Positions 1,290 to 60,449 of a stretch of DNA of 64,000 bases are shown here, piece by piece. How positions within the stretch are numbered: the first letter of the stretch is position 1; each line of letters begins with the position of its first letter. Under the pieces are notes generated by a model. That model had not been told where the DNA came from. It saw only the letters and a list, made by a program, of their open reading frames with translations, and made no database searches. Both the position numbers and the translations under genes were made by a program. The stretch is taken from positions 1-64,000 of the IMG/VR virus record IMGVR_UViG_3300042474_001185; one strand, given 5' to 3'. Source of the DNA: a virus.

Positions 1290-1493
1290 ATGGCAATTTT
1301 AAGAGGGCAATCGCACCCATCGGCAAAACTTACTGACGAGCAAGTCTTAATTATTCGTGACTTATGGAAAATGGGTCATCGTAATATCAAAGTTATAGCT
1401 CGTAACAATAAGGTATCACCATCAAATGTAATGAAGATAGTTCAACGTAAAACTTGGGCACACTTAAATCAATTTTGGTCTGGTAGTTTATGA
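1290..1493 (+). CDS. Small HTH-type DNA-binding protein (resembles the C-terminal domain of HNH homing endonucleases)
   Basis: GQSHPSAKLTDEQVLIIR...IARNNKVSPSNVMKIVQRKTW; ATGA overlap with the Mom-like gene. Confidence 0.65.
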   Translation: MAILRGQSHPSAKLTDEQVLIIRDLWKMGHRNIKVIARNNKVSPSNVMKIVQRKTWAHLNQFWSGSL

Positions 1494-2263
1494 AAGTAGA
1501 AGGTAAACAATATTGCGATACCTCTAAGTTTTCTATTAGAGAGATTAATAAAAACATAGCAAAGGATATCATTGTCAATAACCACTACAGTGGAATATGG
1601 ACGAAGGTATCCTATGCTATTGGATTATTTTACATATCCGAAGATGAACACAATTTCTTTAGTGGAGTTAATGAACAATTGGTTGGGGTTGCCTGTTATG
1701 GTGACCCGGTTGGTAGAAATGCCGGTGCATCTATTTCCGAATTACTTCCTAGAGATGGTGTATTAGAATTAACTCGTCTATTCGTATTTGATGGATATGG
1801 TACTAACATTGAGAGTTGGTTCGTTGGGCAATCTTTCGAATGGTTAAGAACTAATGTACCTCGTATTAAAGCTCTAATATCATATTCAGACCCAAATGCT
1901 GGACACTTAGGAACGGTATATCAAGCTACCAACTGGATATATCAGGGAAACAAAATCAGATGGTCAGATAGTTGGTCTTTCAAATGGAGTGAGGATGATG
2001 AATGGCATCATTCTCGGACATCTTATGTGAAGTACGGAACGAATGACCCAAAGATAATTCAGACAATGGTTACAAGCCCATTCTGGATTAAAAGAGAACC
2101 CCGTAAGCACCGATATGTGTATATTCTAACCAAAGATAAGAAGGAACGCAAAGCCCTCTTAAAATCGCTTAAACATGAGGTGTTCCCATATCCAAAGGTA
2201 GAGTTGGATATTATTGATGAGGTTCATAAAATGGACCCGATAGATTTGGTAGTTTCAGAATAA
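1490..2263 (+). CDS. Mom-family (GNAT-fold) DNA modification protein, paralog 1
   Basis: IVNNHYS, LELTRL, NIESWFV, ISYSDPNAGHLGTVYQATNWIYQG, KHRYVY: the motif series of phage Mu Mom-like proteins. Confidence 0.85.
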   Translation: MKVEGKQYCDTSKFSIREINKNIAKDIIVNNHYSGIWTKVSYAIGLFYISEDEHNFFSGVNEQLVGVACYGDPVGRNAGASISELLPRDGVLELTRLFVFDGYGTNIESWFVGQSFEWLRTNVPRIKALISYSDPNAGHLGTVYQATNWIYQGNKIRWSDSWSFKWSEDDEWHHSRTSYVKYGTNDPKIIQTMVTSPFWIKREPRKHRYVYILTKDKKERKALLKSLKHEVFPYPKVELDIIDEVHKMDPIDLVVSE

Positions 2264-2276
2264 TTTCGTATATTTG
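2245..2276 (+). promoter_or_regulatory. Bacteroidota-type sigma70 promoter (-33 TTTG, -7 TATATTTG)
   Basis: TTTG-gtagtttcagaataatttcg(20 nt)-TATATTTG, 7 nt before ATG 2284. Confidence 0.75.
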
Positions 2277-2283
2277 TAATGTT

Positions 2284-2538
2284 ATGGCAAGAGTAGAACC
2301 AAACGCTAAGGATAAACCACGTAAATTTGAACACATCTATAAGGATGATGATGGATGTGAATCAATTTGGAAATACGATTTGGATAAATTCCCAAATGGA
2401 CCTATATCAGTAGAGAACAAATATCCTGCTGGTTATGTGAAAGATTTGAAACAAAGACAAAAATTAGCAAAGGCTGAACGAAGTTTATCTATTTTAGAAA
2501 AAGCAAAACAAGCAAAAAAGAATGAAGGTAGAAGGTAA
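2284..2538 (+). CDS. Hypothetical protein; overlaps the start of Mom paralog 2
   Basis: 84-aa ORF after a promoter; basic C-terminus; 17-nt overlap with the next gene. Confidence 0.6.
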   Translation: MARVEPNAKDKPRKFEHIYKDDDGCESIWKYDLDKFPNGPISVENKYPAGYVKDLKQRQKLAKAERSLSILEKAKQAKKNEGRR

Positions 2539-3322
2539 AAATTATTGTGATACATCGAAAGTATATGTAGCACCAATAGCAAAGAGTATCGCTAAAGATA
2601 TTATTGTTAAGAAACACTATACTCACGCTTGGACAGCTTGTAGATATGCAATTGGAATATATTACAAATCAGAAGATGCCAATACCTTTGATGGTGATAA
2701 ACTTATAGGTTGTTTAATATATGGTTTTCCTGTTGGAGCAAAAGCATCCACTTCTATTTGTGAAGGATTAACCAAAGATAACATTTTAGAATTGACACGT
2801 TTGTATTGTGATGATGGATATGGTTCTAATATTGAATCATTTGCATTAGGACAATCTTTCAAATGGTTAAAGGAACATGATAAAGCAATTAAAGTATTAC
2901 TATCATACGCCGATAACGGACAAGCTCATTTAGGAGGAATATATCAAGCTACCAATTGGATTTATCAGGGATTATCTACGGATATTGCATTGATGCCAAA
3001 TTGGGGTATATCATTACACAAAGACCCGTATCAATGGATTCATAGTAGGACTGTGTTTTCAATGTGGGGTAGTGGTAACTTAGCACACTTACAAATGGAA
3101 ATCGGTAAGCAAGGATATAAAGAGTTTTGGAGAAGGGAAGAACCACCAAAGCATAGATATGTTCAGATACTTGCGCAAGATAAAAAAGAAAAGAAAGATT
3201 TGATGAAACGATTGAAACACGAAATCAGACCTTATCCAAAAGATACCGCTTCATACAATACAGAAGTAGTACATCACCTAACTACATACGAAGTGCCGGA
3301 AGGAACGGCCAATTTTTGGTAA
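2522..3322 (+). CDS. Mom-family (GNAT-fold) DNA modification protein, paralog 2
   Basis: IVKKHYT, LELTRL, NIESFAL, LSYADNGQAHLGGIYQATNWIYQG, KHRYVQ; same N-terminus (MKVEGKxYCDTSK) as paralog 1. Confidence 0.85.
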   Translation: MKVEGKNYCDTSKVYVAPIAKSIAKDIIVKKHYTHAWTACRYAIGIYYKSEDANTFDGDKLIGCLIYGFPVGAKASTSICEGLTKDNILELTRLYCDDGYGSNIESFALGQSFKWLKEHDKAIKVLLSYADNGQAHLGGIYQATNWIYQGLSTDIALMPNWGISLHKDPYQWIHSRTVFSMWGSGNLAHLQMEIGKQGYKEFWRREEPPKHRYVQILAQDKKEKKDLMKRLKHEIRPYPKDTASYNTEVVHHLTTYEVPEGTANFW

Positions 3323-3326
3323 TATA

Positions 3327-3351
3327 TAACTTATTGATAATCAATGGGTTA
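3327..3351. promoter_or_regulatory. 25-bp palindromic operator-like box
   Basis: TAACTTATTGATAATCAATGGGTTA; same box at 57937, 57987, 60318, 60343, 60370. Confidence 0.6.
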
Positions 3352-3370
3352 GAAAAAACTACCTAAAATG

Positions 3371-3402
3371 TTTGGTAGATTCGGTTATTTTTCGTATCTT
3401 TA
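3371..3402 (+). promoter_or_regulatory. Bacteroidota-type promoter
   Basis: TTTG-N20-TATCTTTA upstream of ATG 3430. Confidence 0.7.
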
Positions 3403-3429
3403 CATAGTTAAAATCATAAAATATAAAAC

Positions 3430-5274
3430 ATGCAAAAAACATTAAAAGACAGTTTAGTTGAATTTTTAAAATCAACAAAAACAAAACGAATTTTTATATC
3501 ATCTCTAAAAGATATAAGACCTTTATATAGAGCACATCAACCATTTGGTAGTCTTGTTGCTCACATATTTAATTCCGGATGGAATCGTAAACCTAAATTT
3601 GATAGTCCAATTGTTATACAAAGTAAATTGGGTTATGTATTTCGTTTGGGGTCTGGGCTTGCATCAATTAACCAAATACCAATATCATTACTATCCGATA
3701 CAGCATCTCCAATTCAAAATTTCCTATTAAAAGACAGAGGTCATATATTAGAAATTACTTGTAAATTATACGATATTCCTAATTGGAGTGTTATTGATGT
3801 AATTAAAGTAATTGATACCGAAATAAAAGAATTAGCAGAAAATACTCAACATCAAAGTTCAGATAGGAAAGATGCATTGGTTATATTAAATTCCATTAAA
3901 GAATTTATAAATGTAAAACATGGTGAGTTTTTATCAAATGGAGTAACTGAAAAATCTGAAATGAAAATTTCAATTAGAGATATAGCAGATGCAGTTCCTG
4001 CGTTTGAAAATAACTTAAATGATACTGAATTATCTGTTGAAGTTAAACGTGAAAGTGTAGCAACTCATATAAAGGAAATTTTATGGTTAAACAATCATAA
4101 CAACAAATGGTCTGATACCCAATTAGCATGGCTATCATTTTGGGCGTATTCGTTTGAAAGAGATAATAGTTCTGATTATATTGATACCGTTTTGAAATAT
4201 GATAACCTTATTGCAATATTAGATAATAGTCCAGCGTTTAATGGAACTATTAATTCTGAAAATCAATATCCATTAATATCGAACTGTATTACAAAACATT
4301 GTGCTAAACTTACCGAAGGTTCTATTATAATTCCTATAAGATTAATAGCAGCTGATCGTGGTATTGCTGATTTTTCGGAAATAGCTAAAATGCTTGAAAA
4401 GGAAAAACAACAAACGTTTGAAACACTATACAAATATCTACATACTAATAAAGTTTCTAAAGATGAATTTTTAGATTATATAGATTTGTATGAGAAGATA
4501 ATGAATCAGCCGGCTTGGGCTACATTTGTTAAAAAAATTAAAACACTATACAAAACTACATATAACAAAAAAAATAGTGTTGTTGATAGTACCAACTTAG
4601 AACATACTAATATTTTACATTCATCGTATGGCGGCCCTGCTCTTATTGCGTGTGCTAGAATTATTAATGAGATATGTGATAATAGAACTTCGGATTCTCA
4701 AATTAAAAGAGTAATTGATGATTTTTGTAATAGACTTTATAATAAAGTAGAAGAAGTGTGTAATGATGGTACATATTTTTCCGCATCTAACAAATCATCA
4801 ATGCGTGTACTTTTAACAATTTTACCTGTATTTTCTGAAATGATGAAAGGCGCTGAATCAAAGGATAAAACATTGAGTAAGCAAAAAGTTTATGAAATTC
4901 TTTTAAACGAACTTAAAGGATATCTTGATGGGCAAGTTAAGTTCAACGTTGTTAAATTAACAACAAAAGGATATAGTGGACATCCTGAAATTACTGATAT
5001 CGATTTTTCAGAATTTGAGAGAGCTAAAGCTGGATTTGATTTAGGCCAAAGAGAGCAAACTATGGGGTATTCATTAGATAATTGTATTGTTCAACAAAAA
5101 CATCATAATCGTTCTGCACATAATATTGACCATAATGTTACTAATCTTGATTATTGGAAATGGTACGCTAAAACAAACTTAGAAATTGTAACATCAAATA
5201 GACAATATTTTATTGATAACGATATGATAGAAGTTATAGCAGATGCTAAAAAACTTAATGAAAGATTTAATTAA
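3430..5274 (+). CDS. 614-aa protein; possible degenerate DUF262 (ParB-like) N-terminus plus HNH-like C-terminus (GmrSD-like architecture)
   Basis: N-terminal GWNRKPKF...NQIPI...FLLKDRGHILE loosely follows DUF262 (YQR..W...IP...DGQQRL). C-terminal DLGQREQTMGYSLDNCIVQQKHHNRS loosely follows an HNH core. The ORF is certain; the family call is weak. Confidence 0.4.
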   Translation: MQKTLKDSLVEFLKSTKTKRIFISSLKDIRPLYRAHQPFGSLVAHIFNSGWNRKPKFDSPIVIQSKLGYVFRLGSGLASINQIPISLLSDTASPIQNFLLKDRGHILEITCKLYDIPNWSVIDVIKVIDTEIKELAENTQHQSSDRKDALVILNSIKEFINVKHGEFLSNGVTEKSEMKISIRDIADAVPAFENNLNDTELSVEVKRESVATHIKEILWLNNHNNKWSDTQLAWLSFWAYSFERDNSSDYIDTVLKYDNLIAILDNSPAFNGTINSENQYPLISNCITKHCAKLTEGSIIIPIRLIAADRGIADFSEIAKMLEKEKQQTFETLYKYLHTNKVSKDEFLDYIDLYEKIMNQPAWATFVKKIKTLYKTTYNKKNSVVDSTNLEHTNILHSSYGGPALIACARIINEICDNRTSDSQIKRVIDDFCNRLYNKVEEVCNDGTYFSASNKSSMRVLLTILPVFSEMMKGAESKDKTLSKQKVYEILLNELKGYLDGQVKFNVVKLTTKGYSGHPEITDIDFSEFERAKAGFDLGQREQTMGYSLDNCIVQQKHHNRSAHNIDHNVTNLDYWKWYAKTNLEIVTSNRQYFIDNDMIEVIADAKKLNERFN

Positions 5275-5573
5275 TGAAATTCGATAAAACTAAAGCCGAA
5301 ATAGTATATCATACCCCATCATTTAAAGATGGGTGGATTACTGTTATTGCCGAAGAATGTAAAGCAAATAATCAAAGAATGGTACTAATAATACCAACTT
5401 GTAAAAAATATTCATATCAAATTAATAAATCGTTTTCTATTTTAGGAGATGATTTATTGATATATGAAATGACGATGGGGATGGGTGTGGTATTAGAATC
5501 CCGAGCAAAGAAGTATGTAGAGTACCACAAAAATAGTAAACTATATGAAAAAAATCCATTTTTTAAGTATTGA
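5274..5573 (+). CDS. Hypothetical protein
   Basis: 99-aa ORF overlapping both neighbours. Confidence 0.55.
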   Translation: MKFDKTKAEIVYHTPSFKDGWITVIAEECKANNQRMVLIIPTCKKYSYQINKSFSILGDDLLIYEMTMGMGVVLESRAKKYVEYHKNSKLYEKNPFFKY

Positions 5574-6294
5574 GACCGATACTCATTCTAACATAGAAAA
5601 GAACTTAATTGAAAGTGCTAGAATTAATAGTATTGATTTAAATATAATTGGTAGAGGACATAAGTGGGAAGGTTTTATTACAAAGTTTAAAATTTTAAAA
5701 GAATATCTTCCTACAATTGAAAGTGAATTAGTTTGCTTAACCGATTCTAGGGATGTATTATATATGTCAGATTCCAAAACAATTTATAATACATTTATAA
5801 AAAAGTTTGATAAAGATTCTATTGTATTTAACGGAGAAACTAATTGTTTTCCGGAGAAAGACTTTGCTCCATTACATCCACATCAAAATAAAAAATACAA
5901 ATATTTAAATTCTGGTTGTGTAATTGGTAACAAAAAATTACTAATTGAAGTAGTAGATAAGTGTTTGGAATTGTATGAAAATTGTAAAATAAATGATGAC
6001 CAATATTTACTTCAGGAAGTATTTCTAAGTGGTGAGTATGGTGATAAATTTACTATTGATTATAATTGCGAAATATTTCAATGTATTTGGGATGAAGAAT
6101 ATGGTAGAAGTAATAATTTTGATTTGGTATATACTAAGGAAGAAATTTTTAATAGATTGACTGATACATATCCATTAATATTTCATTATCCCGGCCCAAC
6201 CTGTACTGGTTCTCAAGTTTGGAAAATTCTTAATAGGAGATACTATAAAATTTCAAACGATTCATATTACAAACAAAAGAAAAATAAAAAATAA
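5545..6294 (+). CDS. PLOD/LH3-like GT-A glycosyltransferase
   Basis: LTDSRDV, IVFNGETNCFP, YKYLNSGCVIG, DDQYLL, IDYNCEIFQC, PLIFHYPG match the GT domain of procollagen lysyl hydroxylases. Confidence 0.75.
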   Translation: MKKIHFLSIETDTHSNIEKNLIESARINSIDLNIIGRGHKWEGFITKFKILKEYLPTIESELVCLTDSRDVLYMSDSKTIYNTFIKKFDKDSIVFNGETNCFPEKDFAPLHPHQNKKYKYLNSGCVIGNKKLLIEVVDKCLELYENCKINDDQYLLQEVFLSGEYGDKFTIDYNCEIFQCIWDEEYGRSNNFDLVYTKEEIFNRLTDTYPLIFHYPGPTCTGSQVWKILNRRYYKISNDSYYKQKKNKK

Positions 6295-7407
6295 ATGAAA
6301 GTATTAGTAATTCCTAATTACACAAACTTTGGACAAGCCAAAGATATTAATAGAGATTCATTTCTATTAGTTTTTAAATCATTTTTAGATAATACTAAAA
6401 TTGGTAAAGAATGGGAATGGGTATTGCCATATCCTGATATGGATAACCATCCTGGCATTATCAATCAATTTGAATACCCAAATGTTTCACTTCGTAAAAT
6501 GGATGGTGTGGATGCCTTTCCACCTAAAATGAGAGTAAATTATCCTCATAAATTTTTTGATAGATTGGTTGAGAAAGAACATTTTAATTTAGTATGGTCA
6601 CATTTACCTGAATGGACACATGAATTTAAAATCACTCGTATCTATAATAAGACACAACCTATCATTGGTTATTGCCATTGGTGGGAGATAAAAGATAATG
6701 GAGCTAGAGATGATAATTCATTTTGGAAAAACATTAAAGGTACATTAGATATGAAAGTATGTGGTGTAAACTCACAATGGGTTAAAGATTTAATTCTTAA
6801 AAGAGCTTCCGAAGATTTCCAACCACACATTGTAGACAAATTAAATGAAATACTTCAGCCTTGGTATTTGGGTACTGATGAATTTGTACCAACTAAAGAA
6901 TACAAAAAGAAAACTATTGTATTCAATCATAGAAATAATGGTTATACGGGCGGCGAGTGGTTCTTTGAAACTATGGATGCGTTATGGAGTGAAAGACAAG
7001 ATTTCGAAGTATGGACTACATTGGGTAATATGAAAAAACCATATACTAAATATATTGGACATGCTGATAGAGATGTTTATATGAATAAATTAGGAGAAGC
7101 GCATTTTGGAGTTGGTTGTTTTGAAACATATTCGGCGTGGAGTATGAGTACAACTGATGGTCTTAGTAGAGGTGTACCATATTTATTACCAAATAAGTTA
7201 TGTTATCCTGAAATGGTAGGTACTGATTATCCACTTCTATATAATGATAGAAAAGAATTTAAAGAAATGGTTAATATGATTTTAGATGAAAAAATAGAAA
7301 GACCAGATGTTAGTGCTCTTTCAAAAGCATTACTTTGGGAAAACTCATTAAAGAGTTGGGATGTAGAAAACAATTTTGTAAAAACAGCAAGAATATTTGA
7401 AGATTAA
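6295..7407 (+). CDS. GT-B glycosyltransferase, candidate DNA-base glycosyltransferase
   Basis: SHLPE, YCHWWE, IVFNHR, WSMSTTDG...PYLLP...YPEM (GT-B donor-binding region); ends 2 nt before the DNA polymerase start. Confidence 0.7.
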   Translation: MKVLVIPNYTNFGQAKDINRDSFLLVFKSFLDNTKIGKEWEWVLPYPDMDNHPGIINQFEYPNVSLRKMDGVDAFPPKMRVNYPHKFFDRLVEKEHFNLVWSHLPEWTHEFKITRIYNKTQPIIGYCHWWEIKDNGARDDNSFWKNIKGTLDMKVCGVNSQWVKDLILKRASEDFQPHIVDKLNEILQPWYLGTDEFVPTKEYKKKTIVFNHRNNGYTGGEWFFETMDALWSERQDFEVWTTLGNMKKPYTKYIGHADRDVYMNKLGEAHFGVGCFETYSAWSMSTTDGLSRGVPYLLPNKLCYPEMVGTDYPLLYNDRKEFKEMVNMILDEKIERPDVSALSKALLWENSLKSWDVENNFVKTARIFED

Positions 7408-7409
7408 TT

Positions 7410-9932
7410 ATGTATCAAAACGTCTATTATCAAAGAGAGAGGAATTTAGTACACTTGTGGGATGACAAGTTAGGGTATCGTTCATTCCCATATACAAGGT
7501 ACGCATATGAAAAAGCAGAAAGAGGTCAATATACTTCATTGTATGGAGATAAGTTAAGTAAGATTTTTAAATTCACAAAAGATGACCCAAATCTTTTTGA
7601 ATCTGATGTACCTGAAACAACACGTATATTGGTTGATACCTATACTGACTCAGATATCCCATCGGAAGGACACGTTATCTTAACATACGATATTGAGTGT
7701 GAAATGGATACAGGTCTGCCTGATGTTGAGAAGGCTGAGAACGAACTTACCGCAATAGGTTTACATGATTCTGCTACTGACCATTATTGGGTTCTTATTA
7801 TGGACAAAGATGGTAAGATGAAGGAAAGTAAGAATGGTAATCGTAGCGTTATTCCTTTTAGAGATGAGAGGGATATGTGTATGAAATATCTTTCACTATA
7901 CGAATATATTAATCCATCTATTGTAACTGGCTGGAACATAGACTACTTCGATACTCCATACCTTTATAATCGTATGAAAAGAATATTGGGTGTAAAGCAC
8001 GCTAATAGATTATCACCTATCGGAGAATGTTTTTGGTCACCATATCGTAAGAGATTCTTTATGGCCGGTGTATCTTATTTAGATTACATTGGATTATATA
8101 AATCATACACTTATGTTGAGATGGATAACTATCGTTTGGATACGGTAGCTATGAAAGAATTAGGTAGAGGTAAAGTTGAGTACGCTGGTAATTTGGATGA
8201 TTTATTTAAAACCGATATTGAGAAGTTTATTGAGTATAACTTAGTGGACGTACAATTGGTTGTTGATATGGAACGTAAATTACAATTCGTAGATTTATGT
8301 AGAGGTATCTGTCACGCTGGACACGTACCATATGAAGATTTCGTTTACTCATCAAAGTTCTTAGAAGGTGCGATGTTATGTTACCTTAAGAGAAAAGATA
8401 TCGTAGCTCCTAACAAACCTGCGGATAGACAAGAGATGATGCAAGCCCTAAGAGATAATGAGCAAGAGAAGTTTATTGGAGCATATGTTAAAGCACCTAT
8501 TGTCGGTAAGTATGATTGGATATATGACCTGGATTTAACTTCACTATATCCATCAATCATTATGACTACAAATATTTCACCAGAAACAAAGGTAGCAAAA
8601 ATTAGTAATTGGGATGCACAAAAGTTTATGAAAGGTGAGATTGATACTTTCTTTATTGGTGAAAAAACAATTACAAAAGAAAACTTAAGAAAGCTATTAG
8701 ATGAAAGTAAGTATACGGTATCATCCAATGGTGTATTATATACTACTGATAAAGTAGGATGTATTCCAGCTATTTTAGATTTATGGTTTGACCAAAGGGT
8801 TGAGTTCCGTAAGTTAGAGAAAAAATATGGTGAGGAAGGCGATAAAGAAAAATATGCATTCTATAAGAAAAGACAGTTGGTACAAAAAATCTTATTGAAC
8901 TCTTTATATGGAGTATTAGGATTACCTGCATTCCGTTTCTATGATGTGGATAACGCTGAGGCGGTAACACTAACAGGTCAGACGGTAATTAAATCAACTG
9001 CGGAGATGGCTAACATTAAATACAATAAAGAATTAGGTACGGTAGGAAATGATTATAACATTTACATTGATACCGATTCGGTATTCTTTTCAGCAGTTCC
9101 CTTATTAGACCATAGACATAAGAATTGGAAAGAAATGCCGGATAGTGAAGTTGCTTTATTAGTGGATGGTATTGCTGGTGAAACGCAAGATTTTTTAAAT
9201 AACTTTTACAATATACTTGCTGAAAAAATATTCAATGTACCAAAGGATAAACATAGATTCCAAATTAAAAAAGAATTTGTAAGTAGAAGTGGTATTTGGA
9301 TTGCAAAGAAAAGATACGCACAATGGATTATTGCGGAGAATGGTATTCCAACCGATAGATTAGATGTAAAAGGATTGGACGTAGTTCGTTCATCATACCC
9401 TGCACAATTCCGTAATTTTATGAGTGGTGTTTTAATTGATATTCTTAAAGGTGAAACTGAAATGGTATTAACCGATAAGATATATGATTTCAAAAAAGAC
9501 TTAGTGAATATGGACGTAACTTCTATTGCTAAAAATTCAGCAGTAAAAGAATTATCCAAATACATTCCAAAGAAAAAAGATAATAGAGCAATGTTCCAAT
9601 TTAATAGTGGAACTCCGGCGCACGTTAAGGCAGCAATTGCACATAACCAATTATTAGTTCACTTCAAATGTGCAGCTAAGCACGCTCCAATGAGAGATGG
9701 TGATAAAATTAAGTGGGTATATCTAAAACAAAACCCGTTTGGATTAGATGCAGTTGGATTCAAAGGACATGATGATCCTGATGAAATAATGGACTTGGTG
9801 AGAATGTATATCGATTATGATAAAATCTTCGAAAGGGAATTATTGAAGAAATTAGAGGACTTCTATGGGGCTTTAGGTTGGGGTGCAGTACTTTCCTCAC
9901 AAAAGACAGCTGAACAATTCTTTTCTTTCTAA
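7410..9932 (+). CDS. polB: Family B DNA polymerase (T4 gp43-like)
   Basis: Exonuclease motifs YDIE, GWNIDYFD, YNLVD; polymerase motifs DLTSLYPS, KILLNSLYG, YIDTDS, KKRYA. Confidence 0.97.
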   Translation: MYQNVYYQRERNLVHLWDDKLGYRSFPYTRYAYEKAERGQYTSLYGDKLSKIFKFTKDDPNLFESDVPETTRILVDTYTDSDIPSEGHVILTYDIECEMDTGLPDVEKAENELTAIGLHDSATDHYWVLIMDKDGKMKESKNGNRSVIPFRDERDMCMKYLSLYEYINPSIVTGWNIDYFDTPYLYNRMKRILGVKHANRLSPIGECFWSPYRKRFFMAGVSYLDYIGLYKSYTYVEMDNYRLDTVAMKELGRGKVEYAGNLDDLFKTDIEKFIEYNLVDVQLVVDMERKLQFVDLCRGICHAGHVPYEDFVYSSKFLEGAMLCYLKRKDIVAPNKPADRQEMMQALRDNEQEKFIGAYVKAPIVGKYDWIYDLDLTSLYPSIIMTTNISPETKVAKISNWDAQKFMKGEIDTFFIGEKTITKENLRKLLDESKYTVSSNGVLYTTDKVGCIPAILDLWFDQRVEFRKLEKKYGEEGDKEKYAFYKKRQLVQKILLNSLYGVLGLPAFRFYDVDNAEAVTLTGQTVIKSTAEMANIKYNKELGTVGNDYNIYIDTDSVFFSAVPLLDHRHKNWKEMPDSEVALLVDGIAGETQDFLNNFYNILAEKIFNVPKDKHRFQIKKEFVSRSGIWIAKKRYAQWIIAENGIPTDRLDVKGLDVVRSSYPAQFRNFMSGVLIDILKGETEMVLTDKIYDFKKDLVNMDVTSIAKNSAVKELSKYIPKKKDNRAMFQFNSGTPAHVKAAIAHNQLLVHFKCAAKHAPMRDGDKIKWVYLKQNPFGLDAVGFKGHDDPDEIMDLVRMYIDYDKIFERELLKKLEDFYGALGWGAVLSSQKTAEQFFSF

Positions 9933-9936
9933 AATA

Positions 9937-9968
9937 TTTGGTAGTTTCAGGTATTTTTCGTATATTTG
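9937..9968 (+). promoter_or_regulatory. Bacteroidota-type promoter
   Basis: TTTG-N20-TATATTTG upstream of the clamp gene. Confidence 0.75.
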
Positions 9969-10003
9969 TATAACAAATTAAAACATAAATTAAAATTTCA
10001 ATT

Positions 10004-10699
10004 ATGAACAAAGGCAAATTTGATGGTTTCGTTAATCGTTACAACTTAGGTGGTGAGATTGAATCCGTTATGGTAAAATCCGATGACAAGAACTTATCGG
10101 TAAGAATGATTTCAGATGACAAAACCTTATTAGGTGATGTTACAGTAGTGGGTGGTGAATTTCCAAATGGTGAATTTGGTATTTACACTACTTCACAATT
10201 AAAAAGCTTATTGAGTGTATTAGATGACACTATCACTGTAGAAGAAGTGACTGGTGCATTAAGATTCTCAGATAAGAAAACAAAGGTACAATATATGTTA
10301 GCGGCACCATCGGTGATTCCCGCAGTACCTGATTTAAAAGCATTACCTCCATTTGATACGGAAGTTGCTTTGGATGATGATTTTGTAAATACGTTTATCA
10401 AATCAAAAGGAGCATTATCTGATTCGGATACTTTTACATTTACTGTTAAGGGTGGTAACGCTGAGATTATTTTAGGTTATTCATCAATTAACTCAAACCG
10501 AATTTCAACAGCTGTTCAAGCAACTACTAAAGTTGATATTGAACCAATTGCGTTCTCAGCAAAATATTTGAAAGCTATCTTAATGGCTAACAAAGGTTCT
10601 AAAACATCTTCATTGAAAATCTCATCTAAAGGATTATCGCATCTATCATTTACTGATGGAGATTATACTTCAAACTATTACTTAGTAGAAATTAAATAA
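10004..10699 (+). CDS. DNA sliding clamp (gp45/PCNA-like)
   Basis: 231 aa, EFGIYTTSQLKSLLSV motif, two-domain beta-rich pattern; between polymerase and clamp loader. Confidence 0.8.
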   Translation: MNKGKFDGFVNRYNLGGEIESVMVKSDDKNLSVRMISDDKTLLGDVTVVGGEFPNGEFGIYTTSQLKSLLSVLDDTITVEEVTGALRFSDKKTKVQYMLAAPSVIPAVPDLKALPPFDTEVALDDDFVNTFIKSKGALSDSDTFTFTVKGGNAEIILGYSSINSNRISTAVQATTKVDIEPIAFSAKYLKAILMANKGSKTSSLKISSKGLSHLSFTDGDYTSNYYLVEIK

Positions 10700-10704
10700 T
10701 TAAT

Positions 10705-11916
10705 ATGAGCTTTTGGGATACTGAACCACAAAAACCTGTCTTTGACTTTGAATCTGAAAAGACGAAGTTAATAGAAAATATGGACTACCTTATGACAATG
10801 TCTGTTCAAGAACAAACTTTGTATAAGAAGTGGGTTGAATTGCAAGAACCTACAATGATTCAAGCGAAATCCCAAATCGCATCTTATTATGATTTACAAT
10901 GGAAACCAACTGATATCAACAATAAGGAGCTAACGATAAAAGAAATTGAATCGTTAGACCCTTACGTTGAGATTGTTGATGACCCAAAAGAATCTACTAA
11001 ATGGGCAGCGGTAAGACGTATGATTCACACAATGGATTTTACAGCAAACCCTGGTCGTAATGTGAAGATTAATGTAAAGGATAGAGTGAGTGGAAAACTA
11101 TTAGGACAGATTTCATTAGCATCCGATGTTACCGCTATGGGAGTTAGAGATAACTTCATTGGTTGGACTAAGGATAATAAATTTGTTGATGGTAAGTTAA
11201 ACAACACTACTATTGCTTCTACTATTGTATGTACTCAGCCATTAGGTTATAACTTTTTAGGTGGTAAGTTAATCGCTATGATGACAACTGTACCTGAAGT
11301 TAGAAACTATTGGAAATCAAAGTATGATAATGTTTTGATTGCCGTTGGTACAACATCTTTGTATGGTATTCACTCTCAATATAATGGTATTCCACTTTTC
11401 AAAACATTGGGTGAATCCGCTGGTAAGATTAGTTTGAAGCCGGATGATAAATTCTATGACCCTTGGCATCAATGGATTAAGGAAAATAAAAATGATTGGT
11501 ATTTGGAAAACATTACTAGAGAAAGAGCTCGTAATGGTGCTAATATGGGATATGAAGCTAACGGACCTGTTAGTGGTATCAAACAAAAAATATTAGGTCA
11601 AATCTTTAAAGAGTGTGGTATTAAGGCAACTGAATATCATCACGGATTTAAGAGAGGTGTTTATATGGCTATGATGTATGAGAACGGATGTGAGTATCTT
11701 AGAAACGAAATCACCGAAGATAAATTAATCCTTAAAGATAAATTTAAGCAAGGTACAACGTACATCAATAAATGGTGGAAGAAACATGCAATCAGTAGAT
11801 ATACAAAACTACATGATGAAGGAAGAATTAAACCCGAACACTTATTCTACATAGATGCTATTGGAATTAGTTGGGAAGAAATGAAAGCTAAATACCTATC
11901 GGAAGTAGGAAGATAA
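10705..11916 (+). CDS. DUF4338 / Druantia DruA-like protein
   Basis: PGRNVK...LLGQISLASD...RDNFIGW...QPLGYNFLGGKLIAM...TTSLYG..SQYN...LGESAG motif series. Confidence 0.75.
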   Translation: MSFWDTEPQKPVFDFESEKTKLIENMDYLMTMSVQEQTLYKKWVELQEPTMIQAKSQIASYYDLQWKPTDINNKELTIKEIESLDPYVEIVDDPKESTKWAAVRRMIHTMDFTANPGRNVKINVKDRVSGKLLGQISLASDVTAMGVRDNFIGWTKDNKFVDGKLNNTTIASTIVCTQPLGYNFLGGKLIAMMTTVPEVRNYWKSKYDNVLIAVGTTSLYGIHSQYNGIPLFKTLGESAGKISLKPDDKFYDPWHQWIKENKNDWYLENITRERARNGANMGYEANGPVSGIKQKILGQIFKECGIKATEYHHGFKRGVYMAMMYENGCEYLRNEITEDKLILKDKFKQGTTYINKWWKKHAISRYTKLHDEGRIKPEHLFYIDAIGISWEEMKAKYLSEVGR

Positions 11917-11926
11917 AAATAAAATT

Positions 11927-12283
11927 ATGGCAAAAAGTAAAAAAACAAAAAAAGTAGAAGAAGTAATTGATAATACTCAATTAGAACCAATTGGACAAAT
12001 TGGACTAGCACAAGAAAAATTAGAACAATGTGAATGGTGTTTTCAATTTGATGAAGATGAACCACAAATATTTGCTTGGACTGGTGATAATATGAATAAA
12101 GATGAAGAACCTAAAGTAATATTTACGGTATCTAATACAAAAAATTCTTATATTACATTCACTCATAAAAATGGTAAATCATTTAAATTATTTGCTAGAG
12201 AATTAAGCGATGAGGGTAGACAACTTAGAGAACAACAATTAAAAGTAAATTTAGAAAATGAAAGTACGAATAAAGAAGCTTAG
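11927..12283 (+). CDS. Hypothetical protein
   Basis: 118-aa ORF in the replication operon. Confidence 0.6.
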   Translation: MAKSKKTKKVEEVIDNTQLEPIGQIGLAQEKLEQCEWCFQFDEDEPQIFAWTGDNMNKDEEPKVIFTVSNTKNSYITFTHKNGKSFKLFARELSDEGRQLREQQLKVNLENESTNKEA

Positions 12284-12689
12284 TGAAAACGCAGTTATCC
12301 CAACTTATGCAAAAGATGGAGATGCTGGAATGGATTTAGTAGCAACATCAGTTATATCAGAAAACGATACTCAAATTACATATGGTATTGGTTTAGCATT
12401 AGAAATACCAAACGGGTTTGTGGGATTAATATTCCCTCGTTCATCGGTTAGAAAGACTAGATTAATGTTAAGTAATTGTGTTGGTGTAGTTGATAGTGGA
12501 TATAGAGGTGAACTACAAGCTACATTTAACAAAGTTAATCAGAACTCAATTGCTGAAAACGATTATAAGGTAGGTGATAGAATTGCACAAATTATGATTA
12601 TCCCACATCCGCCAATTGAGTTTGAAGAAGCTGATGAGTTATCGGATACTGAAAGAGGTGATGGTGGATTTGGTTCAACTGGAAAATAA
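12258..12689 (+). CDS. dut: Trimeric dUTPase
   Basis: AGMDL, PRSS, GVVDSGYRGE, GDRIAQ, RGDGGFGSTG motifs. Confidence 0.97.
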   Translation: MKVRIKKLSENAVIPTYAKDGDAGMDLVATSVISENDTQITYGIGLALEIPNGFVGLIFPRSSVRKTRLMLSNCVGVVDSGYRGELQATFNKVNQNSIAENDYKVGDRIAQIMIIPHPPIEFEEADELSDTERGDGGFGSTGK

Positions 12690-12699
12690 AAAATACAAT

Positions 12700-13641
12700 A
12701 TGTTTATAGAACAAACGGAAGAAAAAGTAAATAACAATTTGTGGGTAGAGAAGTATCGCCCAACAAAGCTTGTTGATTATGTAGGTAACGAACATTTAAA
12801 ATCAAAAGTAGAAGGTTATTTAGAAACAGGCGAAATTCCACATTTACTTTTATACGGAAAAGCCGGTACTGGTAAAACTACATTAGCAAAGTTAATCGTA
12901 AAATCAATTGAGTGTGATTATATGATTATTAATGCATCTTCGGAGAACAATGTGGATACGGTAAGAAATAAGGTAACTAACTTTGCATCTTCTATGGGAT
13001 TCAAACCATTTAAGATTATTATATTAGATGAGTTTGATTATATGACTCACAACGCACAAGCTATCTTAAGAAACTTAATGGAAACATTTTCAGCACATTG
13101 CCGTTTCATATTAACTTGTAACTATGTTGAGAAAGTAATTGAACCAATTCAAAGTAGATGTCAATCATTTCAGATTGTACCTCCAACTAAAAAAGATGTT
13201 GCAATGCAAATTAGTAAAATCTTAAAGAATGAGGAAGTGGAATTTGAAGTTAAGGATTTAGTTCCAATTATTGACGCAGCTTATCCTGATATTCGTAAGG
13301 TTATCAATACATGTCAACTTAATTCTAACAAAGGTAAGTTGAAAGTAGATGTACAAAATCTATTAGAGAATGATTACAAAAATAAAATTATTGATATCTT
13401 AAAATCTTCGGATGATAAGAGAAACAAATATATGAAAGTAAGACAAGCTCTTATTGATTCTAAAGTTACTGACTTTACTGATTTATATACAATGTTATAT
13501 GATAAGGTAGATGAGTATGGTGGAGAGAACACAGCTAACATCATTCTTTTATTAGGAGATGGTGTAAGTAAATCAGCAGTAGCAATTGATAAAGAAATTA
13601 TCGCAGCAGCTACATTAATTCAAATATTAAATATTATTTAA
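12700..13641 (+). CDS. Clamp loader AAA+ subunit (gp44/RFC-small-like)
   Basis: LWVEKYRP, GKAGTGKTT, LDEFD, SRC motifs; probable start is ATG 12700 (the track's 12616 start overlaps dut). Confidence 0.93.
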   Translation: MFIEQTEEKVNNNLWVEKYRPTKLVDYVGNEHLKSKVEGYLETGEIPHLLLYGKAGTGKTTLAKLIVKSIECDYMIINASSENNVDTVRNKVTNFASSMGFKPFKIIILDEFDYMTHNAQAILRNLMETFSAHCRFILTCNYVEKVIEPIQSRCQSFQIVPPTKKDVAMQISKILKNEEVEFEVKDLVPIIDAAYPDIRKVINTCQLNSNKGKLKVDVQNLLENDYKNKIIDILKSSDDKRNKYMKVRQALIDSKVTDFTDLYTMLYDKVDEYGGENTANIILLLGDGVSKSAVAIDKEIIAAATLIQILNII

Positions 13642-14361: not shown

Positions 14362-14393
14362 TTTGGTAATATCGGGTATTTTTCGTATCTTTA
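14362..14393 (+). promoter_or_regulatory. Bacteroidota-type promoter
   Basis: TTTG-N20-TATCTTTA upstream of ATG 14408. Confidence 0.7.
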
Positions 14394-14407: not shown

Positions 14408-15280
14408 ATGGCAAAAGTATCATTTTCGCAGTACTCTATGTGGAGTAACTGCCCGCATCAATATAAGTTAAATTACATAGATAAGTTAGGTGAAAGTTCA
14501 TCTAATATACATACAATATTCGGAACTGCTATGCACGAAACAATTCAACATTACCTTTCGGTTATGTATGGTGTTTCCAAAAAGCAAGCAGATGAAATCA
14601 ACAAAGATAAGCTCTTATTAGAAAGAATGAGAGAAGCTTACAAAACCGAAGCTGAAAAAATGAGTGAAGGAACTCCTTGTACTCAAATTGAATTAGAAGA
14701 ATTTTATGGTGATGGTAGAAGAATCTTAGCATGGTTGGATAAGCACATGCACAAATTTTATTCAAAGAGTGGATATGAATTAGTAGGTATTGAAATTCCT
14801 TTAAACGCAACTATTAAAACAGGAGTGCACTTTATTGGATTTATAGATATCGTATTAAGAGATGTGGCAGAGAATTCAATCATTATCATTGACCTTAAGA
14901 CATCTACAATGGGATGGAATCAATATCAGAAAGCCGATAAGATGAAAAACTCTCAAATTCTTTTATATAAAAAATACTATTCTGAATTATTTAATATTCC
15001 ATTATCTAAAATTAAAGTAGAGTATCAAATCCTCCGTAGGAAGTTACCCGAAGATTCAGCATTTCCAATTCCACATGTATCAAAACACGTTCCAGCTCAT
15101 GGGGCTCCATCGGTTACTAAAGTATATGATGAGTTTATGACATTTATTAATGCAGTATTTGATGATGAGGGTAAATTTAGAGATATTGAATTTCCTAAAG
15201 TACCGGGTCCAGCTAAAAAGAATTGTAAATTTTGTGAATTTGGTAATAGGGGAATATGTGATAAAAAGGCTACAAAATAA
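14408..15280 (+). CDS. PD-(D/E)XK exonuclease (RecB/Cas4-like, probable Fe-S)
   Basis: SFSQY..W..CP, FGTAMHE, GFIDIV, IIDLKTS, QILLY, C-terminal CKFCEF...C. Confidence 0.85.
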   Translation: MAKVSFSQYSMWSNCPHQYKLNYIDKLGESSSNIHTIFGTAMHETIQHYLSVMYGVSKKQADEINKDKLLLERMREAYKTEAEKMSEGTPCTQIELEEFYGDGRRILAWLDKHMHKFYSKSGYELVGIEIPLNATIKTGVHFIGFIDIVLRDVAENSIIIIDLKTSTMGWNQYQKADKMKNSQILLYKKYYSELFNIPLSKIKVEYQILRRKLPEDSAFPIPHVSKHVPAHGAPSVTKVYDEFMTFINAVFDDEGKFRDIEFPKVPGPAKKNCKFCEFGNRGICDKKATK

Positions 15281-18759: not shown

Positions 18760-20826
18760 ATGGCATTAACTAAAAGATTAAGTAAAGGTTCTCCACTTAC
18801 TGCAGCTGAGATGGATGGTAACTTAGATTTTTTACAATCTCAAATTACAGCTGGTTCATCTGGAACTAGTGGAACATCTGGGGTAAATGGTTCACAAGGA
18901 ATATCGGGAACGGGAGGTACATCTGGTACATCAGGTACTTCTGGAACATCTGGTGTAAAGGGTGATTTGTTTACATCCACATCAAATAATAATCATGATA
19001 TTTCATTAGGTTCAAAGACATTTACAATAGCAGGGGGTCTGTCTTGGACACCTGGTCAACAAACTATTATATCTCAAAATGGTAGTAACTACATGACCGC
19101 TACAGTAACATCTTACAATAGTGGTACAGGTCAATTTATTGTAAATGTGGTGTCTGTTGTTGGTAGTGGTACTGGTATAACATCTTGGTTTATAAATACC
19201 GCAGGTGCAACTGGACAGGCTGGTTCTTCAGGCTCATCCGGAACTTCTGGAACTTCTGGAACATCGGGAACTTCTGGAACATCAGGAACTTCTGGAACTA
19301 GCGGAACATCGGGAACTTCTGGGATTAATGGTACATCCGGAACATCAGGAACGTCTGGAACTAGCGGAACATCGGGTACATCTGGTACATCTGGTACATC
19401 AGGAACTTCTGGAACATCTGGAACATCTGGTATAAATGGTAATGATGGAACATTTTTTGGTTCATCTGGAACTTCTGGAGAAAGTGGAACATCTGGAGTG
19501 AATGGTACATCCGGAGTTAATGGAACTTCTGGTGTAAACGGAACATCTGGAACAAGTGGAACAAGCGGTACATCCGGAACATCTGGTATAAATGGTGTGG
19601 CTGGTAGTAGTGGTACATCGGGTACATCTGGAACATCTGGTACATCTGGGACAACTTTTAATTTAAGTGGAACAACCGATAATGGTGTTATTACATCAAA
19701 TAATGGTACAGCCGGTACTGTAGAATCTAATTTATTATTTGATGGAACTCTATTAACAATTAGAGGAAATCTTTCAGCATCTGGAGCATTTACATCATCA
19801 TTAAGACAAGGATATGTTTTAGTTGGTGGTGCTGGTAATGTAACTACGTTAGTAGCAACATCATCATTTGGTGGCGCAGGTACTACAACAACCGATGGGA
19901 TATTCAGAGCAACTGGTTCAATCGTAGCAACAACAAACAATTTACAAATTACAGGTTCTTTGGATATATTAGGACCTATTACGGCATCATTAAGAACGGG
20001 ATATGTTTGGGTTGGTGATAATAGTAGAAGTACAAGACAAGTAGCAACATCATCATTTGGAGCAACTTTGACTGTAGAAGATGGTACTCCTACAATAGTA
20101 CCTAATGTAACTAAAATAATATTTAGTGGAGCATCTGTTACTAATAATGGTAGTGGTCAAATTACTGTAACTGTTACCGGTGGAGGTGGTGGTGGTACAT
20201 CTGGTACATCGGGAACATCTGGCGCCTCTGGTGTAGCTGGTACATCTGGTTCATCTGGTACATCTGGTGCTAATGGTAAAGATGGTACGATGGGTACATC
20301 CGGTACATCTGGTATTAGTGGTGGTGTTAGTTCGGCCGGCTCATCGGGAACTTCTGGAACATCTGGTACATCTGGTTCTAACGGATTTGGTACAAGTGGT
20401 ACAAGTGGTACAAGTGGTATAAATGGTACTTCTGGTGCTAGTGGATTGAATGGAGATGCTGGTACGTCTGGTTCATCTGGAACTAGCGGTACATCTGGTG
20501 TAACTGGTGGAGCATCTACTGGAGGTACGTCTGGAACTTCTGGTACATCTGGTAATTTAACTTTAAGTGGTACAACAAATGATGGTATTTTAACATTTGA
20601 TGGAGGTCTTGTTCAGGGTATAGTTGAATCCGACTTTACATTTAACGCAAGTAGTAAAATTTTAACTGTAAGTGGATCTGTATTAGCATATACATCAGTT
20701 ACATTAAGACCGGTTGATACCCTACCGGCAGGCGCAGTTGGTAAATTAGCATCATATGCTCCGGTATCACCAGCATCGGCATCTTTATATTTCCATAATG
20801 GTTCAGATTGGGTTAAGGTAGTTTAA
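18760..20826 (+). CDS. Collagen-like (Gly-Thr-Ser)n fibre / virion surface protein
   Basis: N-terminal KGSPLTAAEMDGNLDFL anchor motif of phage fibres; three long G-X-Y blocks dominated by GTS; duplicated non-repeat modules (LSGTT..G..T...VES; LR.GYV.VG...VATSSFG). Confidence 0.8.
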   Translation: MALTKRLSKGSPLTAAEMDGNLDFLQSQITAGSSGTSGTSGVNGSQGISGTGGTSGTSGTSGTSGVKGDLFTSTSNNNHDISLGSKTFTIAGGLSWTPGQQTIISQNGSNYMTATVTSYNSGTGQFIVNVVSVVGSGTGITSWFINTAGATGQAGSSGSSGTSGTSGTSGTSGTSGTSGTSGTSGTSGINGTSGTSGTSGTSGTSGTSGTSGTSGTSGTSGTSGINGNDGTFFGSSGTSGESGTSGVNGTSGVNGTSGVNGTSGTSGTSGTSGTSGINGVAGSSGTSGTSGTSGTSGTTFNLSGTTDNGVITSNNGTAGTVESNLLFDGTLLTIRGNLSASGAFTSSLRQGYVLVGGAGNVTTLVATSSFGGAGTTTTDGIFRATGSIVATTNNLQITGSLDILGPITASLRTGYVWVGDNSRSTRQVATSSFGATLTVEDGTPTIVPNVTKIIFSGASVTNNGSGQITVTVTGGGGGGTSGTSGTSGASGVAGTSGSSGTSGANGKDGTMGTSGTSGISGGVSSAGSSGTSGTSGTSGSNGFGTSGTSGTSGINGTSGASGLNGDAGTSGSSGTSGTSGVTGGASTGGTSGTSGTSGNLTLSGTTNDGILTFDGGLVQGIVESDFTFNASSKILTVSGSVLAYTSVTLRPVDTLPAGAVGKLASYAPVSPASASLYFHNGSDWVKVV
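19201..19650 (+). repeat. 9-bp-period coding repeat (GGW ACW TCW / GTS), main block; further blocks near 18850-18960 and 20180-20555
   Basis: Tandem ggaacttct/ggaacatct/ggtacatct units with synonymous variation. Confidence 0.9.
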
Positions 20827-60417: not shown

Positions 60418-60449
60418 TTAGGTAATCTCAGGAAAGTTTCGTATCTTTA
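60418..60449 (+). promoter_or_regulatory. Bacteroidota-type promoter (variant -33 TTAG)
   Basis: TTAG-N20-TATCTTTA upstream of ATG 60494. Confidence 0.6.

Follow-up and report, generated by a model that had tools for sequence, protein, structure and literature searches.

A conserved group of predicted DNA-modification genes lies among the replication genes of an uncultured T4-like phage represented by IMG/VR record IMGVR_UViG_3300042474_001185. We analyzed positions 1 to 64,000 of this record (hereafter the window) and focus on the block at 1290-11916. In this block, two Mom-family genes (MomA and MomB), a hypervariable slot, and a GT-B-type glycosyltransferase gene (GT370, hereafter GT-B) lead into the gene for a family-B DNA polymerase (PolB), which is followed by a sliding-clamp gene and a DruA/DUF4338-family gene. 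The block is a conserved, co-inherited, lineage-wide module: about 60 related IMG/VR contigs keep the series Mom-Mom-slot-GT-B beside PolB, clamp, and DruA. We give even chances to the reading that the region forms one conserved DNA-modification module interleaved with the polymerase and clamp genes. All genes of the block were confirmed at the coordinates in Table 1, every one on the plus strand. An initial annotation, made from the sequence alone, had named two Mom-like genes, a PLOD-like glycosyltransferase, a GT-B gene ending 2 nucleotides (nt) before the polymerase gene, and a clamp gene followed by a DUF4338-like gene, and family and structure searches bear out each of these. Its wider proposal of a multi-step modification block is partly supported: the Mom-Mom-slot-GT-B series is inherited together with PolB, clamp, and DruA, but neither the PLOD-like glycosyltransferase (about 6 of 50 loci) nor the 614-residue open reading frame (ORF) o614 is core.

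We fetched related loci with GT-B as bait, obtaining 51 viral loci and then 12 from a deeper branch. In clade I, every locus with enough flanking sequence has the order o67-MomA-MomB-slot-GT-B-PolB-clamp-DruA-clamp loader, where o67 is a 67-residue ORF. In clade II, the deeper branch, the order is MomA-MomB-slot-GT-B-DruA-PolB-clamp. DruA has switched sides of the polymerase yet stayed with GT-B and the Moms, and GT-B stays between Mom and either PolB or DruA, so the module outlasts a change in gene order. The initial annotation had singled out the neighborhood of GT-B (6295-7407) and polB, and this neighborhood is conserved across the roughly 60 contigs.

Sequence identities point the same way. 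Among clade-I relatives with a median PolB identity of 54%, GT-B is 74% identical, MomA 67%, and DruA 67%, compared with 54% for the clamp-loader protein gp44 and 38% for gp62. Clade II gives 77% for MomA, 73% for MomB, 66% for DruA, and 60% for PolB; GT-B itself is 70-90% identical in clade I and 53-56% in clade II. Since the Moms, GT-B, and DruA all exceed PolB in the most distant clade-I relatives, and the Moms and DruA do so again in clade II, they behave as core constrained genes of the lineage rather than drifting passengers.

The lineage is frequent in lake metagenomes, with this stretch of DNA in at least 17 lake-water runs. Contigs from two of these runs reach from MomB into the GT-B gene and show 0 differences; the arrangement is therefore not an assembly accident. 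Contig depth over 3420-7680 is below that of the Mom, PolB, and DruA genes, a measure that cannot rank genes, and RNA runs held 5-8% of the sampled words, a figure that bears no expression claim. The lineage consists of uncultured freshwater and marine T4-like myophages. A megablast search of the block against 50,697 phage records returned no match. PolB itself is readily classified (phrog_262, E = 1.6e-180), and its nearest cultured relative is that of Microcystis phage Mel-JY01 (51% identity), whose polB locus is without Mom, GT-B, and DruA. The clamp (phrog_223, E = 1.1e-11) is syntenic throughout the relatives.

Both Moms match their family far above its curated cut-off of 27.1 bits (PF25680; MomA, 149.2 bits, E = 1.6e-43; MomB, 151.8 bits, E = 2.6e-44), and MomA matches phrog_1384 with E = 2.8e-47. 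The crystal structure of phage Mu Mom (8bv8) is matched by MomA over residues 22-236 (E = 3.7e-11) and by MomB (E = 4e-6). The two proteins are 51% identical to one another. The 60 unique Mom sequences of the loci separate cleanly into two orthogroups, each with 28 members, and leave four outliers: two third copies elsewhere in the replication operon of relatives, a second retrieval of one of these, and a Polaribacter phage Mom. Both orthogroups are present, always adjacent, in every locus with enough upstream sequence. This clean separation implies that the duplication is older than the split between the clades, and MomA and MomB are, by their sequences, an ancient duplication. At the genome level, PF25680 matches twice in each of G000-G003 and three times in G004; G001-G004 are relatives that are 90-100% complete, each with at least two Mom copies. 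Some relatives have a third Mom-like gene, divergent at 24-34% identity to MomA and MomB. It occurs at G004:C1:130525-131100, in locus L045 at 14594-15226, and in locus L033 at 12953-13330, where it sits either between PolB and clamp or between the clamp-loader genes.

In Mu, the Mom donor is Gly-tRNA(Gly): glycine is moved onto the N6 position of adenine in double-stranded DNA, and the product rearranges to N6-carbamoylmethyl-dA, an aminoacyl-tRNA-dependent mechanism solved only in 2026 (PMC13219725). The initial annotation had envisaged base-acylating enzymes combined with glycosyltransferases. Base modification by the Moms, likely on adenine, survives from that proposal, but Mom is not a plain acyl-CoA enzyme, given its charged-tRNA donor in Mu.

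We mapped Mu Mom residues onto the family with a HMMER/MAFFT alignment, in which a local shift is possible. R111, S124, and Y159 (Mu numbering) are invariant in 60 of 60 Moms, as are H58 and Y59 in the 58 sequences whose alignment reaches them. MomA retains H58, Y59, R111, S124, D149, and Y159 in 28 of 28 sequences; MomB retains R111, S124, and Y159 in 28 of 28, and H58 and Y59 in the 26 of 26 covering the column. From this pattern, the Moms probably modify phage DNA at adenine in a Mom-type reaction. Two departures count against that assignment. The D149 position in MomB is D in 21 of 28 sequences and N in seven, and R151, essential in Mu, is lost from both paralogs (N or K in MomA; G, F, or E in MomB). 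An invariant histidine occupies the position of Mu R154, three residues past R151, and the dimer-contact residue W48 is replaced by N or S in both paralogs.

Mu Mom must dimerize to function, the W48A monomer being almost inactive (PMC13219725). MomB could on these grounds be a partly degenerate heterodimer partner of MomA, so that the pair makes one enzyme and one product; the loss of W48 from both paralogs, their constant side-by-side placement, and the asparagine at the D149 position in 7 of 28 MomB sequences would all fit. We judge this unlikely, as most MomB copies keep D149, and R111, S124, H58, Y59, and Y159 are intact in every copy that covers them. Most simply, MomA and MomB would be two active enzymes that differ in DNA context or in aminoacyl donor. 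Sixteen positions are fixed differently between the two groups, mostly in residues 159-215, which align with the helix-turn-helix (HTH)-like insertion of Mu Mom that is proposed to contact DNA (PMC13219725).

A small ORF precedes each Mom gene. The stop of o67 overlaps the MomA start by 4 nt, and o84 overlaps the MomB start by 17 nt. Nearly all related loci have o67 ahead of MomA (55-97% identity), and a weak PADLOC match links it to the DNA-binding portion of a homing endonuclease (E = 5e-3). o84 is found only in closer relatives (49-99% identity) and matched no family in Pfam, NCBIfam, or PADLOC. We considered a Com-like zinc finger upstream of mom and rejected it: both ORFs lack cysteine pairs, and o67 has no cysteine at all. 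The window's Moms thus share with Mu Mom the Pfam family, the catalytic residues H58, Y59, R111, S124, (D149), and Y159, and, as in com/mom, a small upstream ORF overlapping each gene start. They differ in being two ancient paralogs rather than one gene, in not keeping R151 and W48, and in having an HTH-like and a basic protein upstream where Mu has the Com zinc finger. Moreover, Mu mom lies at the end of a transposable prophage, whereas the present genes belong to a lytic T4-like replication operon with GT-B and DruA.

GT-B is separated from PolB by the two nucleotides TT, its stop codon ending at 7407 and the PolB start lying at 7410. Sequence searches found no Pfam (E <= 0.01) or NCBIfam (E <= 0.1) match for it, including Glycos_transf_1 and Glyco_trans_1_4; the PDB sequence search gave chance rows only, and tblastn against the 50,697 phage records gave no match. 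There are 398 metagenomic homologs. Its AlphaFold2 model is confident (predicted local distance difference test score, pLDDT, 92.4), and Foldseek aligns it with GT-B/GT4 enzymes (E = 3e-11 to 1e-8, probability 1.00, TM-score 0.6-0.7), the best being GT4-type retaining transferases. PDB matches include 7qsg (E = 3.4e-11), PimB' (E = 8e-11), and, at rank 3, 9ir0 from phage HY126 (E = 2.7e-10), with further structural matches to 3oka, 3mbo, and 3c4q. A protein language model gives a likeness of 0.97 to GT4 clusters. By its predicted structure, the product of 6295-7407 is a GT-B, GT4-like glycosyltransferase.

GT4-like GT-B enzymes do act on DNA, and arabinosylated 5-hydroxycytosine is reported in HY126 phage DNA (PMC13326640). 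Phage DNA glycosyltransferases have also been reported beside DNA polymerase and ParB-like genes (10.1101/2023.12.21.572611). We tentatively propose that GT-B acts on DNA, and place this somewhat below an even chance. That it glycosylates the Mom product, placing a sugar on the Mom adduct, is improbable. A predicted complex of GT-B with DruA scored 0.00, which is evidence neither way.

The DruA gene is firmly assigned (PF14236, E = 2e-17, 63.7 bits against a cut-off of 27; phrog_19197, E = 2.7e-28; PADLOC DruA PDLC00002, E = 1.9e-15), and 43 of 43 aligned homologs match DruA. The family comprises 955 cluster representatives at E <= 1e-3. Long homologs carry an N-terminal ParB_N domain (3 of 10), a UDG domain (1 of 10), or DUF3102; proteins with one or another of these domains are P0146, P0147, P0154, P0169, and P0156. 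Because of the fusions to ParB_N and UDG, the DruA domain would be expected to work on DNA, and we rate action of the window's protein on DNA as evenly balanced. DUF4338 has been called a GNAT in the literature (PMC10853773), and one GenBank record labels a cyanophage DruA homolog 'methylcarbamoylase mom'. Searches of the PDB with the DruA alignment profile and with the sequence returned nothing, and among the 43 homologs no weak GNAT hit in Pfam was recurrent.

DruA also occurs in Pelagibacter myophages and in about 25 T4-like cyanophages near clamp-loader genes, in S-CAM9 between two of them. The window's protein resembles DruA of type I Druantia in matching the Pfam and PADLOC DruA models over about 250 residues. 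It differs in having no DruB-E neighbors; clamp, dUTPase, and clamp-loader genes take their place, in the same order in about 60 loci. It is a phage gene between clamp and clamp loader, and belongs to a large phage branch that includes pelagiphages and cyanophages. The module is not a Druantia system.

The initial annotation had seen no hydroxymethylase or cytosine methylase in the window. No ThyA-type hydroxymethylase is present among the window ORFs scanned with Pfam, and C5-methylase (PF00145) has no match in the 79.8-kb viral contig of which the window is part or in genomes G000-G004. TET/JBP (PF12851) has no match in the 79.8-kb contig or four near-complete relatives, a weak negative because the model rang in no control genome. 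ThyA is present in 3 of the 5 genomes searched and in 2 of the 4 near-complete relatives, being absent from G001 (97% complete) and G004 (94% complete), and this patchy presence rules it out as a universal acceptor-maker. With no C5-methylase or TET found and ThyA in only two relatives, the Moms are the only recognizable base activators. If GT-B acts on DNA, the Moms and perhaps DruA would be the only visible acceptor-makers.

Several observations weigh against reading all of these genes as one DNA-modification module. Synteny inside one viral lineage is not independent evidence. Relatives of GT-B (48-50% identity) occur by themselves in roughly 30-kb phages that have no Mom, ThyA, DruA, or collagen hits. 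Two such phages (L056 and L057; G008 and G009) are 100% complete by CheckV, G009 with direct terminal repeats, and in L057 the gene lies on the strand opposite to its neighbors, between terminase/HNH and protease/structural genes. Because these relatives stand alone in complete phages without Mom, the GT-B family needs no Mom product; the glycosylated base suggested in the initial annotation is possible, but this finding tells against a route from Mom to sugar. GT-B is also mildly acidic (isoelectric point, pI, 5.98), and its nearest viral structural neighbors outside its own family are Arthrobacter-phage (actinophage) glycosyltransferases with no assigned target. The window's huge glycan locus and Ser/Thr-rich fiber genes could use these glycosyltransferases. 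For DruA, the copies in HTVC008M and S-CAM9 show no Mom alongside, so replication-module DruA need not work with Mom, and its comparison with Mom by hhalign was not significant (probability 1.7%).

These points feed the alternative in which only the Moms act on DNA, GT-B and the PLOD-like glycosyltransferase serve protein or glycan substrates and belong functionally with the downstream glycan/fiber locus, and DruA is a separate replication gene. At least 10 further glycosyltransferase genes, sugar-nucleotide enzymes, and a Ser/Thr-rich collagen-like protein are encoded at 15.5-40 kb, and collagen-repeat giants occur in 5 of 5 relatives searched. The PLOD-like glycosyltransferase (249 residues) matches PF25342 (E = 7.6e-29, 101.1 bits against a cut-off of 27), and its best solved relative is mimivirus R699 (9dyt, E = 4e-17), followed by human LH3 (E = 9e-8). 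R699 is a collagen galactosylhydroxylysyl glucosyltransferase that adds glucose to an already attached sugar (PMC12279948), which again suits a protein substrate.

The gene's distribution does not. It forms a rare optional two-gene cassette with o99, an ORF without a Pfam, NCBIfam, or PADLOC match that is paired with it only in the window (WIN) and in L012, L017/L050, and L031. In genomes that carry it, the PLOD-like gene always lies directly upstream of GT-B, occurs nowhere else, and never neighbors collagen genes. G001, G006, and G007 have it, and G002 and G003, both of which encode giant collagen-repeat proteins, lack it; collagen-repeat ORFs in G001, G002, G006, and G007 span 2,000-3,760 residues. 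The window's own collagen-like protein (18760-20826) contains 2 Lys and no Pro among its 294 G-X-Y residues, which are mostly G-S/T-S/T, making the R699-type acceptor, Gal-hydroxylysine, unlikely. A collagen-hydroxylysine role was accordingly weakened, given the Lys-poor repeats, the lack of an LH-like oxygenase, and the lack of co-occurrence with collagen. The gene thus shares with R699 and the LH3 glycosyltransferase domain the PF25342 match and the GT-A assignment, and differs in having no recognized lysyl hydroxylase partner, an almost Lys-free local collagen-like protein, and a cassette attached to GT-B rather than to collagen genes. By analogy with R699, it would fit an optional second-sugar step after GT-B.

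The place of GT-B, kept through a change of gene order and conserved above PolB in the most distant clade-I relatives, likewise stands against a purely glycan-directed role. As the initial annotation had noted, both block glycosyltransferases lie 8 kb from the main glycan locus: the next such gene downstream of GT-B starts at 15548, 8.1 kb away, and all the others cluster there or beyond. Overall, we consider the alternative confined to Mom activity on DNA a serious one, less probable than the single DNA-modification module.

The slot between MomB and GT-B is the variable part of this module. It is empty in 7 loci (L002-L004, L006-L008, and L043), leaving a gap of 6-51 nt, and in most relatives holds one ORF of 500-672 residues that is 15-85% identical to o614. 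Most slot ORFs are homologous to o614 yet have diverged to 15-37% identity, compared with 55-90% for the flanking genes. Another set (L021, L039, and L044), along with two singletons, showed no BLAST link to o614. Set against the conserved flanks, this divergence looks like that of an arms-race gene. Shared motifs are FNSxWNR, KDRGH, NNxxNKW, and a C-terminal DLG(H/Q)..N..Q..HNR, in which the window's o614 has Q where other copies have H.

The initial annotation had called o614 DUF262/HNH-like. Some structural likeness of its N-terminal domain remains, but no sequence family matches, and the HNH part is read from a motif only. Pfam, NCBIfam, and PADLOC gave no match, including GmrSD_N, DUF1524, and HNH, and the PDB sequence search gave chance rows only. 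In the AlphaFold2 model (pLDDT 87.5), the N-domain aligned by VIA with ParB-N (Z = 6.0-6.5, root-mean-square deviation about 3.1 Å over about 95 residues) and with BrxU/SspE (Z = 5.3-5.5), in a range where common folds match by chance; Foldseek rows were weak (SspE, E = 8e-3), and language-model likeness to GmrSD-type nucleases was 0.82. The predicted N-domain is weakly ParB/DUF262-like, and the C-terminal motif may form a His-Me finger. o614 resembles the DUF262-DUF1524 modification-dependent nucleases GmrSD, BrxU, and SspE in length, and may also do so in its predicted ParB-like N-domain and a possible C-terminal His-Me finger. It differs in being phage-encoded and extremely variable, with KDRGH instead of DGQQR and no model-level sequence match, and is not assignable to GmrSD.

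These features raise the prospect of a restriction-modification-like pair, in which the slot protein would be a nuclease or NTPase-nuclease of the GmrSD/BrxU/SspE kind directed at host or rival-phage DNA, and Mom (with GT-B and DruA) would protect the phage's own DNA. The N-domain likeness, the conserved motifs, the fixed position combined with arms-race divergence, and the existence of ParB_N-DruA fusions are consistent with it. The absence of a matching family model, structural scores within the chance range, and the Q in the window's DLGH motif count against it, and the slot is empty in seven loci that have all the modification genes, so modification is not solely protection from the slot protein. 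We hold this pairing to be quite unlikely.

Table 1. Coordinates of the genes and of one promoter-like motif in the block at 1290-11916 of the window.
Feature	Coordinates	Strand	Description
o67	1290..1493	+	67-aa basic mini-protein, pI 11.5, HTH-like
MomA	1490..2263	+	Mom-family GNAT, orthogroup A; PF25680, phrog_1384
o84	2284..2538	+	84-aa basic ORF
MomB	2522..3322	+	Mom-family GNAT, orthogroup B; PF25680, phrog_1384
GGTATTTTTCGTATMTTT-family motif	3384..3401	+	Promoter-like, conserved, intergenic; precedes the o614-to-PolB gene run
o614	3430..5274	+	614-aa occupant of the hypervariable slot
o99	5274..5573	+	99-aa ORF, cassette partner of the PLOD-like glycosyltransferase
PLOD/R699-type GT-A glycosyltransferase	5545..6294	+	PF25342; optional cassette gene
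GT370 (GT-B), GT4-like glycosyltransferase	6295..7407	+	Core gene; assigned from predicted structure
PolB, family-B DNA polymerase, T4 gp43 type	7410..9932	+	PF00136, PF03104, phrog_262
Sliding clamp, gp45 type	10004..10699	+	phrog_223
DruA/DUF4338-family protein	10705..11916	+	Core gene; PF14236, phrog_19197, PADLOC DruA

The window has 32% GC and is coding on a single strand, and CheckV puts the completeness of the 79.8-kb contig at 37%. The GGTATTTTTCGTATMTTT motif, frequently with TTTGGTA before it, occurs 5 times in the window, where 0.6 matches would be expected. Beyond the copy in Table 1, copies lie at 9950-9967, 14375-14392, and 60431-60448, with one on the minus strand and a partial copy at 2264-2283. 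The sites precede o614, the clamp gene, a PD-(D/E)XK nuclease gene, and an ORF starting at 60494. By sequence and position, the motif probably serves this phage as an early or middle promoter. We also considered the T4 late-promoter motif TATAAATA, which is not enriched (12 matches against 19 expected, with 0 in the block).

Upstream of the block, a weak 2-oxoglutarate-Fe(II) oxygenase match (678-1274; PF13640, E = 6e-4) is inserted between o389 and o67. It shows no lysyl hydroxylase likeness, and none of the 51 related loci has such a gene at that place. Downstream, the dUTPase ORF (12258-12689) and the gp44-like clamp-loader ORF (12616-13641) would overlap by 74 nt if the latter used the TTG start at 12616; gp44 translation probably begins further downstream. 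Positions 15548-39680 make up a very large glycan locus, with GT4, GT2, and GT11 genes, a WecB-type epimerase, a DegT aminotransferase, an AMP-binding enzyme, SDRs, FkbM and other methyltransferases, and three NAD-dependent epimerase/dehydratases of the GDP-mannose-dehydratase kind. In the same locus, a PfkB kinase adjoins a HAD-nucleotidyltransferase fusion, resembling a sugar-activation pair.

If the block is one DNA-modification module, it could work as follows. After replication, MomA and MomB would each transfer an aminoacyl group (glycine in Mu) from a charged tRNA to adenine N6 in double-stranded DNA, where the adduct would rearrange to a carbamoylmethyl type and block host restriction. 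The paralogs, differing mainly in the segment aligned with the DNA-contacting insertion of Mu Mom, would probably serve different sequence contexts, or else use different aminoacyl-tRNAs. The DruA-type enzyme and GT-B, whose gene runs into that of the polymerase, would be further DNA-directed modifiers, and the cassette of o99 and the PLOD-like glycosyltransferase, where present, would add a second sugar. The ParB/DUF262-like slot protein would be a fast-evolving DNA-handling partner that may tell modified from unmodified DNA. We regard as unlikely the fullest version of this scheme, in which one or both Moms would use a non-glycine aminoacyl-tRNA (e.g., Ser or Thr) to leave a hydroxyl side chain on adenine N6, GT-B would attach a sugar to it, the R699-like glycosyltransferase would add a second where the cassette is present, and DruA would be a third DNA-directed transferase.

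The DNA-acting GT-B genes of T-even phages and of RB69/HY126 cluster near gp43 in Straboviridae. The module shares with the T-even (glucosyl-hydroxymethylcytosine) and RB69/HY126 (arabinosyl-5-hydroxycytosine) systems a GT-B gene beside a T4-like replicative polymerase gene, and with the latter the HY126 glycosyltransferase 9ir0 among its three best structural matches; the optional second glycosyltransferase recalls the second-sugar enzymes of T2 and T6. It differs from both systems in that no lineage-wide ThyA-type hydroxylase or hydroxymethylase and no C5-methylase/TET was found, and in that their enzymes have no sequence-level relation to GT-B; the likeness is in layout only. Because the acceptor pathway is missing, the module is not a member of these systems.

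We found no paper that connects Mom homologs to glycosyltransferases. The word glycosyltransferase is absent from the 2026 Mom paper (PMC13219725), and a survey of phage DNA glycosyltransferases mentions neither Mom nor adenine (10.1101/2023.12.21.572611). New here are the gene order conserved in about 60 contigs, the second clade with GT-B-DruA-PolB, the ancient Mom pair, and the hypervariable slot. The arrangement suggests a new multi-enzyme way of disguising phage DNA. With its long-separated Mom orthogroups, and with GT-B and DruA kept alongside through a change of gene order, the lineage is a natural test for the use of other amino acids by Mom relatives and for further processing of Mom products. 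If the sugar step is real, phage DNA glycosylation would extend from pyrimidines to adenine. A Ser/Thr-type Mom acting with GT-B would make the first glycosylated purine hypermodification in viral DNA, reached by a route combining a tRNA-dependent GNAT with a glycosyltransferase, and would offer a biochemical lead for DruA of type I Druantia. Even without a sugar step, the twin-Mom arrangement is conserved, and the ParB_N and UDG fusions of DruA, together with its setting in marine T4-like replication operons, provide a usable lead on Druantia DruA.

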